64,000 nt of DNA, from positions 27,110 through 91,109 of IMG/VR virus record IMGVR_UViG_3300042275_000095; one strand, written 5' to 3'. This document shows positions 762 to 51,197 of the stretch, in pieces (the stretch's first letter is position 1; each line of letters begins with the position of its first letter). The position numbers and the translations under genes are program-made. The notes under the pieces are model-generated. The model was not told the origin of the DNA. It worked only from the letters and a program-made list of their open reading frames with translations, and did no database searches. The DNA comes from a virus. Taxonomy: Duplodnaviria > Caudoviricetes.

Positions 762-1062
762 TTGTATAATTATTATAATTAAATACGTAACTTACTCTAT
801 TGTCTCCTTCTATAAGTTCAATTAAATCTTCTAATGTTGCAATTGTTATTAAAAGTGCATGTTCTAAATCATAATTTCTAATTTTTATGATACGTTTATT
901 TCTAAATTTATCTTTAAATGTTAGAGTAACAGTATAGTTAATTCGTAATGAATTAAATTGTCTATTTATGTTAATGTTATATTTAAAACTTTGCACTTTA
1001 ATAACATATGAGTTAATTGTACCTATTAAATATTCCAACTTCATATCTTGTAAATCACTCAT
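745..1062 (-). CDS. hypothetical protein
   Basis: 105-aa ORF overlapping both neighbours. Confidence 0.7.
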   Translation of the reverse strand: MSDLQDMKLEYLIGTINSYVIKVQSFKYNININRQFNSLRINYTVTLTFKDKFRNKRIIKIRNYDLEHALLITIATLEDLIELIEGDNRVSYVFNYNNYTNENRR

Positions 1063-1504
1063 TTTTATGATAATAGGATTTATAAATGTTTAGTATGGTG
1101 TGCCCATCTTCATTACTTATTACATAATCATCGGGATTTAATCCTAGTTGAGATACTTCATTTCTCCATACATCACTAGGTATTTTACCGTTTAGTTCCA
1201 CCTTAAATGTTGCAATTGAATCAACATTATCTACATCAGAGTCTACTTCAAATATTTCAATTAATTCTTTAGTTAACTCTTCATTATTTATAGTGCTAGA
1301 TTGAATATGATCTAATAAAAACTCTAATAAACAGTGAGGACTACAAAAATGAAATTGATTACTTGAATCTAAACTTAAGGCTTTTATACCAGCTCTTTTA
1401 ATTTGTAATTCGCCTTTTGTAGTTTTAATTTCTATCCATCTATCATTTATTATATCACTAGATAATTTATCACATCTATCACATTTGTATACTTCACCTT
1501 TCAT
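1055..1504 (-). CDS. zinc-finger protein (TRASH/MYM-like)
   Basis: CDRC ... HFCSPHC metal-binding pattern. Confidence 0.55.
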   Translation of the reverse strand: MKGEVYKCDRCDKLSSDIINDRWIEIKTTKGELQIKRAGIKALSLDSSNQFHFCSPHCLLEFLLDHIQSSTINNEELTKELIEIFEVDSDVDNVDSIATFKVELNGKIPSDVWRNEVSQLGLNPDDYVISNEDGHTILNIYKSYYHKNE

Positions 1505-1899
1505 TATACATCCTCTACTGTTATTATTAATCCTTCAGGGTACATTAACTTTTCTAATATACAATTAAATGAACTATGTGCATCATAATGTATAGGTCTA
1601 TCTGTCCACTCTTTTATTGAACAACATGCATATGATCTAACTTTAACATTACTCATACTTTTAGAATCACGTACATATACATGTGGAATAAATGAACCTA
1701 ATTTACTTTTACTTTCTGTGCCATCAATTTCTCCCATTGCTTTAACAAATGGTTCTAACTCGTGGATACTTATAAAATCTAATTGGTCATCTATTGGAAC
1801 AGCTATAAACTTAGTTAATGTGTTAGAATCAGTATCTAGAATTGATAAAGTTTTAAAGTCATCTATTTTATAAGTCTTTATAATATATTTAGATCGCAT
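1504..1899 (-). CDS. hypothetical protein
   Basis: 131-aa ORF, stop/start overlap with the downstream gene. Confidence 0.7.
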   Translation of the reverse strand: MRSKYIIKTYKIDDFKTLSILDTDSNTLTKFIAVPIDDQLDFISIHELEPFVKAMGEIDGTESKSKLGSFIPHVYVRDSKSMSNVKVRSYACCSIKEWTDRPIHYDAHSSFNCILEKLMYPEGLIITVEDV

Positions 1900-25880: not shown

Positions 25881-25926
25881 ATTGCTATTTATTTAAATGA
25901 TTAACTATCGTTCGTCGATAGTCTTT

Positions 25927-25971
25927 GCGGACAGAGAGGAATCGAACCTCTCTATACACCATGTGTCCTAC
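25927..25971 (-). ncRNA. anticodon-less tRNA-like element 1
   Basis: GU[A]GGACA-CAUGGUG-UAUA-GAGAGG-UUCGAUU-CCUCUC-UGUCC-GC. Confidence 0.7.
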
Positions 25972-26402
25972 TCAGTACGATGTAACACAGAACCTATACC
26001 TATCACAATAAACCCTATTGCTAATGATATAAATCCTTCTTTGAATGATTGCATTGGATTATCACCTCTAATAAACCACATTACTATCACTAGTTTTAAT
26101 AGTGACATCAGCGATATTGTACTTCCAGCTACTAATAATGAGACACTTATGATATCACGTCGTCGGGATTTAATGTATCTCGCATAATGATAATAAAATA
26201 ACTCATCTAGACTTTCACGCCTTTCATAATTAGCATTAGCTATCTCACATGCACCATCAAAACCCCAAGTCTCAACTTTTTCTTTAAGACTGATAGGTAA
26301 TGATTTATATGTATCAGGTGTGATAAATAAATCATCTAACATGTGAAATGTCTCAGCTGCGAGATACATTCTAAAGTTATAGGTCATCTTAAACTTAGGC
26401 AT
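25968..26402 (-). CDS. hypothetical membrane protein (2 C-terminal TM segments)
   Basis: IISVSLLVAGSTISLMSLLKLVIVMWFI and GFISLAIGFIVIGIGSVL. Confidence 0.75.
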   Translation of the reverse strand: MPKFKMTYNFRMYLAAETFHMLDDLFITPDTYKSLPISLKEKVETWGFDGACEIANANYERRESLDELFYYHYARYIKSRRRDIISVSLLVAGSTISLMSLLKLVIVMWFIRGDNPMQSFKEGFISLAIGFIVIGIGSVLHRTE

Positions 26403-26712
26403 TGCTACCTCCTTTCATAATAAATTTATGAATAGATGTAAACTCTACATTATTAAGGTCATTTAAGACCTTTGCAGAACCAGGTTGACCCATATCACAA
26501 ATTACAATGTCCAACACTGTAGGTCTACTAACCAATGTACATATGACTTCTGTTGGATTAAACCTTAATAAGGTCATGTATCCAATTTCACCAACATATG
26601 CACGGGCTGTCAATCTACCTTGTGCGTCCAATGCAATTAATTTGTGATACATCTTTCTTGAGATTGTTTCATTTTTGCGGATTAATAATCCTGCTTTTTC
26701 TAATTCTTTCAT
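26395..26712 (-). CDS. hypothetical protein
   Basis: 105-aa ORF. The GGAGG near its end serves the next gene. Confidence 0.7.
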   Translation of the reverse strand: MKELEKAGLLIRKNETISRKMYHKLIALDAQGRLTARAYVGEIGYMTLLRFNPTEVICTLVSRPTVLDIVICDMGQPGSAKVLNDLNNVEFTSIHKFIMKGGSNA

Positions 26713-26881
26713 AGCTTTTTGTTTTGTGTAACTGTTGCTATTAGTTACGATTATAGTTAGTTGTAATTACTACTCTGCAAATATTAGCCACATACAATAG
26801 GTTGTACATATTTACAGAGTTATTATCTCTAATCCTTATTATAATGGATGAGTTTATAGACTACTGAGATTACGCAGTCTT

Positions 26882-26932
26882 AGTGCCTAGTCGAGAATCG
26901 AACTCGAATATACTATCCATAGCTAGGCTACC
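26882..26932 (-). ncRNA. anticodon-less tRNA-like element 2
   Basis: GGU[A]GCCUAG-CUAUGGAUAG-UAUAU-UCGAG-UUCGAUU-CUCGA-CUAGGC-ACU. Confidence 0.7.
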
Positions 26933-27120
26933 TTTGTACCATTAACTACTATACCCTAATGGTTTGGGTAAGCACGGTTAATATAGACCACGTGCTATTC
27001 TATACTATCTTATGTGGTTGGGATAGTACCAATTACTACTATATTATCACCTGTAGTAGCTTCAGGGATACTGTTCTTTGTCTAACTTGGGGAACTAGCT
27101 AAGACCCAATCTCACAGCTA

Positions 27121-27369
27121 TTACAAATAGTACCATGTAGTACTATTGGCATCACACTGTAATGGTCTATTACCTTGTAACTCAAAGTCATCAGGTAATT
27201 CCAAACGTGTGTTCCAATATGTACCATCAGTAGCACCATCCATATAGCGTGTGTCTGTAGTATATCCTACATATGCATCCTCAGATACACTCTCAGGATC
27301 ATTAGGATAAAATGTACTACTACCATCACGCCATTCTGTGAGGTTACCGAATATATACATACGGTACAT
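27121..27369 (-). CDS. small acidic hypothetical protein (first gene of the leftward arm)
   Basis: 82-aa ORF. Confidence 0.6.
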   Translation of the reverse strand: MYRMYIFGNLTEWRDGSSTFYPNDPESVSEDAYVGYTTDTRYMDGATDGTYWNTRLELPDDFELQGNRPLQCDANSTTWYYL

Positions 27370-27553
27370 TTACTGTGCTATCAACTACTAGTCCTTGATA
27401 ACGTAGGACTGTGTCACTTGACACTTACCAATAAATAAATAAAATAATTATTCATTTATTGGTAATTAAATGTAAATGAAGGGCTACCCTTGGTAGGGGG
27501 TACTCCACTTACAACAATTTGTACCCGTCGCTGATATAGGTGGGTCACGCTAG

Positions 27554-27788
27554 AACACCCTCACTCTATTTTCACATCTTCCAAACTATCCTAAACTCTA
27601 ATATATTTTACTATCATCTCCTTCTAATCCAACTAACCAATATTATCTCTAATCTCTAATCTACTCCACTTAACAATTAATCAATCTCACCTTATCTCTA
27701 CCAAATTAAATACTCTACCTTTCTAACTATTAAATAACTAATCAACCCCCTACCCCCTACTACCCTACTTTAATATAATATATAATAA
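27554..27788. other. 235-nt G-free tract in the divergence region (candidate origin element)
   Basis: No G on the plus strand between G27553 and G27789. Includes CCCCCTACCCCCTACTACCC near its right end. Confidence 0.85.
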
Positions 27789-27837
27789 GTACCGGTCATT
27801 TAATATTGTAAATAACTAGCAAGCGTTAGCTAATAAA

Positions 27838-27862
27838 GTGCATCTCTTTCTCCTTTAGGGAG
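27838..27862. repeat. dispersed hairpin/polypurine/GATGC motif (representative copy)
   Basis: GTGCATCTCTTTCTCCTTTAGGGAG. Related copies at 8147, 17846, 20823, 52445, 58025 and 60768. Confidence 0.75.
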
Positions 27863-27961
27863 ATAGCCAAATACTCTAAAGTAATTACTCTTGTTAACTA
27901 TTAACTCTAATATACTAATCTATATCTCTAAATAAATATTTAAAATAATATATTGTCTAGC

Positions 27962-27992
27962 TTGATTTTGTCAAAATTTTAGTATAACTTTA
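27962..27992 (+). promoter_or_regulatory. Bacteroidota-type promoter for the rightward arm
   Basis: TTG-N20-TAACTTTA. Confidence 0.55.
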
Positions 27993-28006
27993 TCCACTGA
28001 AGTAAG

Positions 28007-28068
28007 TTAGTAATAAATCACAGGTAACTAATAAGTAAATTAGTAATAATCCACAGATAACTAATAAG
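28007..28068 (+). repeat. two imperfect 29-bp direct repeats (33-bp period)
   Basis: TTAGTAATAAATCACAGGTAACTAATAAG / TTAGTAATAATCCACAGATAACTAATAAG. Confidence 0.8.
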
Positions 28069-28156
28069 ACTTACAATTTTAGAAAGTTTTTTAATTTTTT
28101 TAAATTACTATAAATTAATTACTAATAAAATAAGTTATAAATTAAATTAATTTAAA

Positions 28157-47814: not shown

Positions 47815-49232
47815 TGAGTAATATACGTGGTGGACATAAGAAATTAATATTATCAGATATTAAACCTGATGGTTCAGGATATGATGATTATACATTTAAG
47901 TATATATCATTTCTTATGTTTGATGGTGATATTAAGATAATAGATAGGTATAATGAAGATTGGAATCTTGTAAGTTATGACCCTGATGCAAAGTATTCAG
48001 CTATATGCACAAGGTGGAATAGAATGTACTTAGTAAATACCAATTCAAGTGGTTATGCTGAGTTCTCATTGATAAAAGATTACGCAGGCGATATATCAAC
48101 AGATGGAGTAGTTATTGATACACCATTGGATGGAATAATTAATTTATTAGGTGTATCTAGACATCCAACTGATACATACGATAATATATTAAGGTATGTA
48201 GAGGAAGTTGGTAGTAATACATATTTACAGTATTTAGTATGTAATAGTGTAAGTGAAACAATACCTTATAGAAATACTATATATTCCAATACCTATGACT
48301 ATAGAACATTACCATATGATTGGGATGGTGTTACTATAGATAGCGTAACTGATTTGGTAATAAGTATAATGCGACATGAGTATCAAAATGGTGTATATTC
48401 AGATGATTATATAGGAGTTGGTCATTCTACCTTAACTCCTAATGTAGTAATATTTACTGAAAAAGAAGAGTTCTATGCTGAGGGTAATCAAAGTGGTAGC
48501 GGGTCACCTGAAATATGGAGCATTGCTAAACTTAAAGTATGGTTATCATTAGATGGAGGTTCTACATTAACTGATATATCTAGTAGATTAAATCCTACAT
48601 TTGACTTAGATAATACAAAATATGTAGTAGACCATTGGGAATTAGATGATGCAACTTATACATGTGATACTATATATTGGACAGTTAACCCAAATGGTAG
48701 ATTGTTATGTGGAGTACAACCACCATACAATAAACATAATAGAAGTTATGGCGGAACAACTAGATTCCATATTAGTTATAATTATGGCGCAACTTTTGAA
48801 GATGAACATCAGATTATAGAAACAGGTAATGTGTTTTATTTACCAGTATGTAATAATATGGGAGCTAACGGTAATATATTATTAGGTAAATACTTTGATT
48901 CGTTTGAGGACAGTTATACATACGATAATCATTTACAACTTAGCATATATAATATACATACTAAAACAATAACTGCTATACCTGATGTAACTACACTATC
49001 AGATTGGTCATTTTATTACTATAAACCTTCTACATATGCTATATCAGGAGACGGTAATACAGTAATAGTAGGTGGTACTTGTTTAAGAACACCTATTGCC
49101 CAATATAAAATGGTATATTTTAAAATAGATATATCTAATGTAAATAACCCTAGTATTGTAACAGGTGCTTATTATCCAACTATACCATCAGTATTAGGAT
49201 TTGGAGTATCTAAAATTATAACAAATTTTTAG
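47814..49232 (+). CDS. beta-propeller (Asp-box/BNR) tail-associated protein
   Basis: SLDGGSTL and SYNYGATF Asp-box-like motifs. Confidence 0.5.
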   Translation: MSNIRGGHKKLILSDIKPDGSGYDDYTFKYISFLMFDGDIKIIDRYNEDWNLVSYDPDAKYSAICTRWNRMYLVNTNSSGYAEFSLIKDYAGDISTDGVVIDTPLDGIINLLGVSRHPTDTYDNILRYVEEVGSNTYLQYLVCNSVSETIPYRNTIYSNTYDYRTLPYDWDGVTIDSVTDLVISIMRHEYQNGVYSDDYIGVGHSTLTPNVVIFTEKEEFYAEGNQSGSGSPEIWSIAKLKVWLSLDGGSTLTDISSRLNPTFDLDNTKYVVDHWELDDATYTCDTIYWTVNPNGRLLCGVQPPYNKHNRSYGGTTRFHISYNYGATFEDEHQIIETGNVFYLPVCNNMGANGNILLGKYFDSFEDSYTYDNHLQLSIYNIHTKTITAIPDVTTLSDWSFYYYKPSTYAISGDGNTVIVGGTCLRTPIAQYKMVYFKIDISNVNNPSIVTGAYYPTIPSVLGFGVSKIITNF

Positions 49233-49235
49233 GAT

Positions 49236-51197
49236 ATGTATATAAAGAATTTAACAGACATATTAGATATAACTATCAACAACTCAGCTGCTGGTGATAT
49301 ACGTATATTATCTAGAGTAGGTACTAACAACTGGTCAGATTATCTAAATGTATTAACTACAAGTATAGGTAATAGCAATTCATCATTATTAACTGAAGCT
49401 GCAATTAAAGCTATACTACCATCATCTGACCATGGTGAGTTAGACGGGTTATCTGATGATGACCATGCACAGTATTTAACTGAGGGTAGGGCTGATACAT
49501 GGTTAGCAGCAGGACATGAAAGTACATTTAACCATTCATTATTACACAATCATAGTAATAAAATTGTATTAGATGGAATATCTAGTACCAACGTAAGCAA
49601 TTGGAATACAGCATATGGATGGGGTGACCACGATGGTTTATATGAACCTATATTTATACATGAAACTGGATTTAATTTACCATTAGGTACTACAGCAGGT
49701 ACAGTAGCAGAAGGTAATCACACTCATTCTAGTTATATTACTACTAGTAGTGTAACTTATGAAACGTTGGATAGTAACGGTGATGTAGGAAGTGGTGCAG
49801 GTCAATTAGCTATAGGTAATCATACACATAGTGGAGTATATGCACCTAATAGTCATACACATACAATGTCAGAGATAAGTGATATGTCAGGTGTAACATC
49901 AGGTACTTATACTAATGCTGATATTACAGTAGATCAATACGGTAGAGTAACTAGTGCAAGTAATGGTACTATCTCTACTACATACTGGACTGTATCAGGT
50001 GATAATATACACAATAATAATAGTGGAAATGTAGGCATCGGCACTACATCACCATATAGTAAGCTAGATGTAACAGGTAATTTTACTATATCAAATGATA
50101 CAGCTTTAGGTAGTGGTGCACAGATGGTACAAAACTTTGTAGCATATAATGCTCAGACTAGTCCTGTTACACAAAAGGTGTATGGTAATATAGCTGTAGT
50201 AGTAGTTGATAATACAGTAGATAGTGAAGACGCTAACATGTATATCAATACATTAAAAGGTGGTAGTACAAGTACAGACATTGCTATATTAAGTGGTGTA
50301 GCAATGTTTTATAATGGTGTAAGAATTGATGATGGTGAAACATTAGCATGGAATTTAAGAGATTCACAAACTACATACATTAAAGGTATAAAAGGTGGTA
50401 CTACTGATTACTTGGAATTTAATGCTATGGGATATTATACATTCGATACATATTCTGATTCAGGTTATTACAAATTCTATATAAATAATAGTGAGATATT
50501 AAATATTAGTCCTAATGGTATAAATTTAGGTAGTAGTTCACCAGCAGCAGCTAATTCTATTGTAGCAGATGGTAGTATAACAGCAGGTGTAGATATTACA
50601 GTAGGTGGCATATTAAAACCAGATACTGATAGTGGTGCAGATATAGGAGAAACAGCTAAGAGATTCAAATCTACATACTTAGACCTCTTATATGCAAAAG
50701 GTAACCTTATATTAGATAGTACAAGTGACCAAGAAATATGGCAAAAGAATGGTAATGATATTAAGATATATAGTGATGGTTCAGGTAAGGTAATACTTAA
50801 TACTAGAATACAGCTTCAACTTACAACAATGGAAAGTGGGGAATTAGATGTAGGAACATCGTGGGAGCATGTAGCAAGGATTAATATAACACCTGATATG
50901 GTAGGGTTAAAGATTAAATCAATGTATATATCATGTGGTACTAAACCTAGCCATACACTATACGTAGGTGCAAGACGAGCTGATGCAAGTGGTACATTAA
51001 TGGGTACATATTATGAAGTCTTTAGTACAACTCCGGCTTATACTAGCACAGGTAACATATTAAGGGAGTTTACTGGAGTGAATACAAGTAATAACACATT
51101 GGCTGATAAAGAAGTGTTGGATATAAGGTGTTATTATGCTAGTACGCCTACAACAAAGGCAAAAGATGTAGTAGTAACTTTAATCCTTGATTTATAA
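49236..51197 (+). CDS. tail fibre protein with HxH repeats
   Basis: HGELDGLSDDDHAQYL, GNHTH x2, HTHT, GNVGIGTTSP. Confidence 0.75.
   Translation: MYIKNLTDILDITINNSAAGDIRILSRVGTNNWSDYLNVLTTSIGNSNSSLLTEAAIKAILPSSDHGELDGLSDDDHAQYLTEGRADTWLAAGHESTFNHSLLHNHSNKIVLDGISSTNVSNWNTAYGWGDHDGLYEPIFIHETGFNLPLGTTAGTVAEGNHTHSSYITTSSVTYETLDSNGDVGSGAGQLAIGNHTHSGVYAPNSHTHTMSEISDMSGVTSGTYTNADITVDQYGRVTSASNGTISTTYWTVSGDNIHNNNSGNVGIGTTSPYSKLDVTGNFTISNDTALGSGAQMVQNFVAYNAQTSPVTQKVYGNIAVVVVDNTVDSEDANMYINTLKGGSTSTDIAILSGVAMFYNGVRIDDGETLAWNLRDSQTTYIKGIKGGTTDYLEFNAMGYYTFDTYSDSGYYKFYINNSEILNISPNGINLGSSSPAAANSIVADGSITAGVDITVGGILKPDTDSGADIGETAKRFKSTYLDLLYAKGNLILDSTSDQEIWQKNGNDIKIYSDGSGKVILNTRIQLQLTTMESGELDVGTSWEHVARINITPDMVGLKIKSMYISCGTKPSHTLYVGARRADASGTLMGTYYEVFSTTPAYTSTGNILREFTGVNTSNNTLADKEVLDIRCYYASTPTTKAKDVVVTLILDL

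Follow-up and report, generated by a model that had tools for sequence, protein, structure and literature searches.

The stretch of DNA analysed here (the window, 64,000 nucleotides) covers positions 27,110 to 91,109 of an IMG/VR virus record of 91,109 bp and 28.8% G+C. The record begins and ends with the same 253 bases (G000:C1 1-253 and 90857-91109), and this terminal overlap indicates that the nominally linear record is a circular, permuted or terminally redundant assembly of ~90.9 kb. Proteins neighbouring the large conserved proteins of this phage bear the Crass_capsid domain, and its portal and DNA polymerase match phage families, from which we conclude that the phage is crAss-like. Its replication and early genes occupy the minus strand of the window from 1 to 27,400 and its structural genes the plus strand from 28,157, the two blocks diverging from a non-coding region at 27,370-28,150. 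The non-coding stretch before the first leftward ORF is conserved between the window (27380-27560, minus strand) and the related contigs L002 (~820-960, minus strand) and L017 (~1060-1230, minus strand). Within it are a long palindrome of A/U and a short hairpin with compensating changes (GUGUCA..UGACAC vs GUGCC..GGCAC); it may be an early promoter or leader.

Downstream of the ORF at 27121-27369 lies an ORF-free stretch of 400 nt, closed by an RNA element (element 2). About 175 nt of this stretch (26935-27110, minus strand) form a structured leader with several hairpins and a long-range helix (UUGGGU/ACCCAA); the leader has no Rfam match and runs directly into element 2. Two overlapping small genes follow on the same strand (25968-26712 in the ORF list), encoding proteins of 105 aa (26395-26712) and 144 aa (25968-26402), neither of which has a Pfam or PHROG match or relatives in IMG/VR. 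The gene pair is thus bracketed, with element 2 upstream and a second element (element 1) downstream.

A sequence-only reading of this DNA had proposed that the two elements are miniature tRNA mimics, and both are found on the minus strand, element 1 at 25927-25971 and element 2 at 26882-26932, the string originally given for element 2 beginning one base inside that interval. Element 1 consists of two outer pairs, an A, an outer stem of 4-5 bp, an 11-nt connector that contains AUGGUGUA, an inner stem of 6-7 bp and the T-loop UUCGAUU. It starts (25971) one base ahead of the TAG stop of the 144-aa gene, whose three bases (25970-25968) lie inside its 5' strand, so that the proposed overlap with the upstream stop is real. 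Element 2, which in this phage has three outer pairs, a bulged A and a 6-bp acceptor-like stem, continues with a mini-hairpin whose loop is UGGA and, past the linker UAUAU, with a T stem of 5 bp that is capped by the same T-loop. In both elements the stems stack into a fully paired helix of 11 bp (5+6 or 6+5) whose sequences are unrelated; both carry a UGG in the connector and a UAUA(U) linker, and both lack an anticodon arm and CCA, all as had been described. Only 15-17 nt separate the acceptor and T stems. Two further features stood only in part. The bulged A is present in both elements between the outer pairs and the main helix, but those outer pairs fail in L017. The mini-hairpin carrying UGG is found in element 2, but in element 1 it amounts to 2 bp, and comparison with the wider family (below) makes this segment an unpaired bulge. 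Each element is followed on the same strand by a 7-bp hairpin, that after element 1 (25904-25922, 5-nt loop) lying 4 nt downstream and that after element 2 (26858-26880, 9-nt loop) beginning 1 nt past the element.

The loop UUCGAUU on a stem of at least 5 bp, closed by an acceptor-like helix, occurs in only these two hairpins in the 91-kb genome. For element 2 the predicted minimum-energy fold coincides with the fold first proposed; for element 1 the tRNA-like fold is predicted at -14.0 kcal/mol, 2.5 kcal/mol worse than an alternative long hairpin. As had been anticipated, ARAGORN calls no tRNA gene, and no tmRNA gene, in the window or the whole 91-kb genome, and Rfam gives no match in the genome at gathering level. 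The window elements themselves match nothing in Rfam at gathering level or at E<=10; the sole trace is a T-arm stretch of 17 nt that aligns to cyano_tmRNA with 10.7 bits, where the gathering score is 70. The elements are therefore neither canonical tRNAs (RF00005), having neither an ARAGORN gene nor an Rfam tRNA match, nor tmRNAs, for which the ARAGORN search was negative. The TROVE domain is absent from the 91-kb genome, while control genomes are positive, and the Phage_integrase (tyrosine integrase), CCA-adding enzyme and RtcB domains are likewise absent from the phage genome. These absences led us to drop the readings of the elements as Y RNAs (YrlA, for which there is also no Rfam match), as attP sites and as substrates of phage-encoded processing or ligation; any processing must rely on host enzymes.

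A nucleotide search of GenBank phages with this region, extending to near and distant matches, returned none, and relatives were traced through the portal and a 770-aa protein. In L002, whose proteins are 35-77% identical, a block ~90% identical in nucleotide sequence to window 26,855-27,110, and so taking in the leader, ends in element 2. Element 2 is likewise present in the contigs L005 and L017, where a small ORF separates the leader from the element, so the leader-element 2 unit is modular and the element is a separable module that follows an ORF, like element 1. In the more distant crAss-like contigs L026 and L027, whose 770-aa protein is 45-49% identical, the syntenic region holds no copy. 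The insert in the L005 leader is a 75-aa ORF flanked by two copies of a ~30-nt hairpin with the stem AGCACG/CGUGCU (1311-1343 and 1606-1640, plus strand), of which the window has a copy at ~26971-26996 (minus strand); the ORF looks like a small gene cassette inserted at the hairpin.

Comparison of the orthologues of element 2 (L002/L005 and L017; n=3) reveals compensatory change throughout the structure. The acceptor stem changes from U-A to C-G and from C-G to A-U, two pairs of the T stem change on both sides, and the mini-hairpin changes from U-A to C-G while its loop UGG(A/U) is kept and the T-loop UUCGAUU is invariant. The hairpin at 26858-26880 is kept in L002 through G-U/G-C changes, and L017 has a different 7-bp hairpin in its place. 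When element 1 is added, giving four distinct copies, 7 of 13 pairs have changed on both sides and 96% of cells are paired, compared with 31-45% when the partners are slid; the covariation claimed for the stems is thereby borne out. Near-identical strains (L019) have element 1 unchanged, and model R1 gives it 62.3 bits. Both elements are genuine features of the minus strand and not products of chance.

IMG/VR was scanned with a pattern made from the connector and T-loop of element 1 (ATGGTGTA, 4-9 nt, GTTCGATTC), and the looser pattern was present in more than 117 IMG/VR contigs among the matches listed. In 88 viral loci that we read, 45 matches (35 distinct sequences) pass a filter that asks for the T-loop, at least 4 bp in the outer stem, at least 6 bp in the inner stem and a 5' bulge of 8 nt; the remainder are ordinary tRNAs or chance matches. 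In most of those that pass, the outer stem measures 5 bp and the inner stem 7 bp, and the 3' strand is continuous over 12 nt. Thirty distinct sequences from unrelated phage contigs align without gaps, sharing the 12-bp helix, the T-loop and the 5' bulge AUGGUGUA. In this alignment 11 of the 12 pairs have changed on both sides; it is important to note that, since the sequences were chosen for pairing, their 100% pairing is a product of construction, but the diversity of their stems is not. G-U pairs occur solely on the transcribed strand, so the structure is one of RNA.

A covariance model, R2, built only from these 30 sequences from other phages, finds element 1 at full length (30.1 bits, E=4e-4 in 924 kb) but misses element 2, a variant that has a mini-hairpin and linker instead. 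The 8-nt bulge of the family, A(U/A)GGUG(U/A)A, is placed 7 bp from the loop, and element 1 holds AUGGUGUA within its 11-nt connector; the bulge sequence was forced by the search pattern, but second copies on which it was not forced retain GGUG. These extra, unselected copies, of which R2 brings the number to as many as three per 1 kb in some phages, have the bulges AAGGUGAA, GCGGUGUA and AUAGGAUGUA and the loop UUCGACU. Across the family the T-loop is UUCGA(U/C)U, and in most members the stacked helix is 12 bp; in tRNA the acceptor and T stems stack as 7+5 bp. Elements 1 and 2 share with the family a stacked helix of ~12 bp with a continuous 3' strand, the T-loop UUCGA(U/C)U, a position after an ORF and a following hairpin. 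Three other interpretations of the region were tried and rejected. A mini-ORF AUG-GUG-UAG in the bulge, with a UGAUG stop-start overlap, fails on the unforced copies, which have AAGGUGAA or GCGGUGUA; a SECIS-like hairpin after UGA fails because the stop codons vary (UAG, UAA, UGA), as do their positions; and a 270-nt block with element 2 as one tmRNA, RNase P RNA or group I intron has no Rfam match and is split by the ORF insertions in L005 and L017.

A stricter pattern occurs at 21 of the 88 viral loci, whereas 596 Gb of prokaryotic genomes yielded it on only 3 contigs, among them a Prochlorococcus single-cell assembly. This contrast identifies a phage RNA family, and not host tRNA debris or attP sites. 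At Rfam gathering level, 22 related or family loci gave no match to the elements, the matches elsewhere in these loci being one ordinary tRNA (L065) and a glutamine-II riboswitch (L055), and no self-cleaving ribozyme was found at the equivalent junctions in relatives. We found no description of the family in the literature or in Rfam; a 2023 catalogue of 10,006 viral RNA candidates (PMC10690425) may contain it. Elements 1 and 2 are members of a widespread, uncatalogued family of phage RNAs that copy the acceptor/T-arm top half of tRNA. The crAss-like members, the model of the subfamily with the AUGGUGUA bulge, the contrast between viral and prokaryotic genomes and the coincidence with an RNA 3' end in mycobacteriophage L5 (below) are new here.

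If the elements were instead decaying tRNA genes or tRNA-derived attP sites, functionless as such, one could point to T arms identical to those of real phage tRNAs, such as the tRNA-Gln in L035, and to the true attP of phage D29, which also has a T arm. However, both strands of the elements covary, including a 5' acceptor strand that an attP does not need, the family pattern is almost absent from the prokaryotic genomes, and this phage has neither a tyrosine integrase nor tRNA genes of its own. We consider a relic origin of this kind largely excluded. The original contention that these are not decayed tRNA genes has thus held up, and it is because of the compensatory changes in homologues, together with the size and phage-specificity of the family, that we regard the elements as acceptor/T-arm mimics maintained under selection.

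The ORFs upstream of family members are mutually unrelated. The upstream stop codon is mostly within the 5' strand of the element or a few nucleotides ahead of it, and where it is within the strand it is either a basal UAG, the case of element 1, or a UGA with which the bulge starts. A second hairpin lies 1-4 nt downstream of nearly all members, and also follows element 2 and its L017 copy. In L074 (282-1197, minus strand) there are three copies in ~900 nt, each followed by a 7-8-bp hairpin with the conserved loop A(C/A)UGA, so that a punctuation unit of two hairpins is repeated. T7-like cyanophages carry the element immediately upstream of the major capsid gene, in a gap that has no annotation. 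At this capsid-upstream site Prochlorococcus phage P-SSP10 (L170, 1466-1500, plus strand) has an ordinary hairpin without a T-loop, so the T-loop is not always needed there; downstream of the hairpin, the motif UUGGCA..GCCC..GUACG is conserved in P-SSP10 and related contigs. In two phages of high G+C (L035, 1510-1565, and L060, 8466-8508, both minus strand) the element is directly followed by (G/A)CCA, resembling an encoded CCA tail, and in L035 the genuine tRNA-Gln is 1.1 kb off in the same operon.

The lack of relationship among the upstream genes, and the differing small ORFs inserted beside element 2 in L005 and L017, would suit a role at the DNA level, in which the elements are boundaries of recombination, joints at which phages swap small accessory genes. 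Against this, the stems covary and are not conserved, and their G-U pairs are confined to one strand, which argues for RNA rather than DNA homology, while the insertion in L005 is flanked by repeats of another hairpin. We therefore hold such a role to be very improbable.

A possible bearing on function comes from Cluster A mycobacteriophages, in which the element lies near the genome's right end on the leftward strand. In George it clearly belongs to R2, at 39 bits. L5 (NC_001335) has an element-2-like variant at ~51,137-51,179 on the minus strand (L175, 638-680), with a 4-bp outer stem, a mini-hairpin and a T arm at 51,141-51,157, followed by a G+C-rich hairpin and gene 89; D29 (NC_001900) has a covarying T arm at the equivalent place (~47,980-48,010, minus strand), and the T arm covaries among L5, D29 and George. 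In L5 the ~500-nt non-coding RNA transcribed from Pleft is the most abundant phage transcript and very stable (Dedrick et al. 2017, PMC5712189), and by RNA-seq and Northern analysis ~90% of Pleft transcripts end in 51,140-51,190 (PMC5712189). The T arm falls within this zone, which is a 50-nt range of coverage and so compatible with an end on either side of the element. The authors described the way this 3' end is set as unclear and saw no canonical terminator (PMC5712189), and the term 'tRNA-like' does not occur in their paper. The cloned Pleft region is toxic to both M. smegmatis and E. coli, and the deletions that map the essential part of the toxic region lie just upstream of the element (PMC5712189). 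The Pleft regions of L5, D29 and StarStuff share with our phage the layout of an early promoter, a structured leader (several hundred nt of non-coding RNA in the mycobacteriophages), a T-arm element, a hairpin and then the first small genes; the hosts and phage families are unrelated.

We consider it somewhat better than an even chance (roughly 0.55) that the elements constitute a tRNA-like module for the formation or processing of RNA 3' ends. What RNase P, RNase Z and the CCA-adding enzyme recognise in a tRNA is the helix of acceptor and T arm together with the T-loop. Starting from the structure of the elements, their selection, their phage-specific distribution and their position after ORFs, we infer the enzymes and the cleavage as follows. 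The elements would be transcribed within the leftward early operon, where host RNase P would read the 5' side of the element and RNase Z or an equivalent enzyme the 3' side, with CCA possibly added afterwards. Element and following hairpin together would set a discrete, stable RNA end and lessen read-through into downstream genes. The outcome could be a tRNA-like 3' end resistant to exonucleases, a cut between cistrons, or both, the hairpin serving as a trailer or partial terminator. Element 2 would thus end the structured leader RNA, and element 1 the two-gene message that ensues. That the elements are processing signals in an early polycistronic mRNA was already part of the sequence-only reading; the proposal fits the genomic context and the L5 Pleft data, with cleavage as its conjectural step.

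The details of element 1 bear on where such a cut might fall. Cleavage by RNase P at its base would remove the upstream TAG, which favours processing on the 3' side or, alternatively, a deliberate non-stop message. Bacterial RNase P contacts the 3'-RCCA of its substrates, and, there being no CCA, this contact is missing in all but rare members (L035, L060). The further suggestion of a tRNA-like elbow between D-loop and T-loop must be divided. In element 2, and in the family member in L044, the junction sits 5 bp away from the loop with a connector of 12-17 nt, and by a geometric estimate a contact between GG and the T-loop is conceivable. In the common family form, by contrast, the 8-nt bulge exits the helix at a distance of 7 bp from the loop, rather than the 5 bp of tRNA, and by the same estimate such an elbow is unlikely.

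There are two other explanations for the position and conservation of the elements that have to be weighed against 3'-end processing. The first is that they are purely structural, helix and hairpin acting as a terminator, an attenuator or a block to exonucleases in which tRNA enzymes are not involved, and the likeness to tRNA contributing just a very stable loop fold. The regular presence of a second hairpin, the ending of ~90% of L5 Pleft transcripts in the zone of the element and the hairpin without a T-loop at the P-SSP10 site are all as this would have it. Against it, the T-loop heptamer is invariant while the stems vary freely, and helix length clusters at 12 bp; nor is there a U run, as in an intrinsic terminator, after either element or its downstream hairpin, and the L5 authors saw no canonical terminator (PMC5712189). 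We regard a purely structural 3'-end element as unlikely, and a role for the tRNA likeness in loop stability alone as equally so.

The second is that the elements act in trans, an excised RNA of 45-50 nt accumulating as a tRNA mimic that titrates or misleads a host factor which binds the top half of tRNA. This factor might be an enzyme of tRNA processing or modification, or else a defence protein by which acceptor ends are sensed or attacked, the latter corresponding to the decoy role that the sequence-only reading had put forward. Released 'anticodon-less tRNAs' of 45-55 nt might, on this account, act early in infection by saturating or redirecting RNase P, the CCA-adding enzyme, TruB or TrmA, or else might blunt a defence system that senses or modifies acceptor ends. 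Conservation of the family across unrelated phages and its place in early operons are compatible with such a role, as is the L5 Pleft region, which carries the variant and combines great abundance and stability with toxicity to M. smegmatis and E. coli. However, there is no known binding partner, the essential part of the toxic L5 region, as defined by deletions, lies immediately upstream of the element, which therefore cannot be credited with the toxicity, and the anticodon loop needed by most anticodon nucleases is absent here. Titration of a host factor thus appears quite unlikely to us, and we are no less doubtful of the saturation of tRNA enzymes or the blunting of a defence system as particular forms of it.

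Processing at the ends of tRNA-like folds, which we prefer as the explanation, has several known parallels. Acceptor/T-arm minihelices have reportedly served as model substrates for RNase P, RNase Z and the CCA-adding enzyme, as attributed to McClain, Guerrier-Takada and Altman in 1987. Like the phage elements, these lack D and anticodon arms and consist of a coaxial helix of 12 bp under a T-loop, but they are synthetic, end in a 3' CCA and have no bulge, whereas the phage elements lack CCA and have a GG-containing connector of 8-17 nt. In mascRNA/menRNA (Rfam RF01684) a tRNA mimic makes or caps an RNA 3' end through RNase P/Z; mascRNA is, unlike the phage elements, a eukaryotic full cloverleaf, and neither Rfam nor ARAGORN detects it here. 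The tRNA-like domain of tmRNA resembles the phage elements in mimicking the top half only, but its halves are at the ends of the RNA, with a tag ORF and CCA, and it too is not detected here. YrlA has a non-decoding tRNA-like module with a T arm, is present in some phages (Chen et al. 2014, PMC4201824), and in M. smegmatis is cut by RNase P and receives CCA (PMC4201824). It differs in lying beside Ro60/Rsr and in having a Ro-binding stem and a D arm, while our phage has no TROVE protein and no Rfam match to it. The t-elements of plant mitochondria are tRNA-like folds around the T-arm motif GGTTCRANYCC (Forner et al. 2007, PMC1920247), situated inside polycistronic transcripts beside or overlapping the ends of ORFs, and the limits of these folds match experimentally mapped mRNA ends that RNase P and RNase Z produce (PMC1920247). 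They are like the phage elements in their T-arm fold and their position at ORF ends. However, t-elements are organellar and mostly degenerate cloverleaves derived from tRNA genes, whereas the phage elements are 45-50 nt, have no anticodon arm, are known from sequence and form a covarying family across unrelated phages.

Since neither Rfam nor tRNA finders cover the family, annotations of phage genomes omit it. The question of the L5/D29 Pleft 3' end, open since 2017, becomes testable in a tractable laboratory system, and the compact 45-nt form could serve synthetic operons as a part for stabilising or processing RNA. Should the elements after all act in trans, they would be an RNA-based tool of host takeover or anti-defence common to crAss-like phages, cyanophages and mycobacteriophages, and the toxic effect of the L5 Pleft RNA could be due to them. 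If, on the other hand, crAss-like phages, T7-like cyanophages and Cluster A mycobacteriophages all use these top-half mimics as punctuation in their operons, then the tRNA-maturation enzymes of the host would be an overlooked general regulator of phage gene expression.
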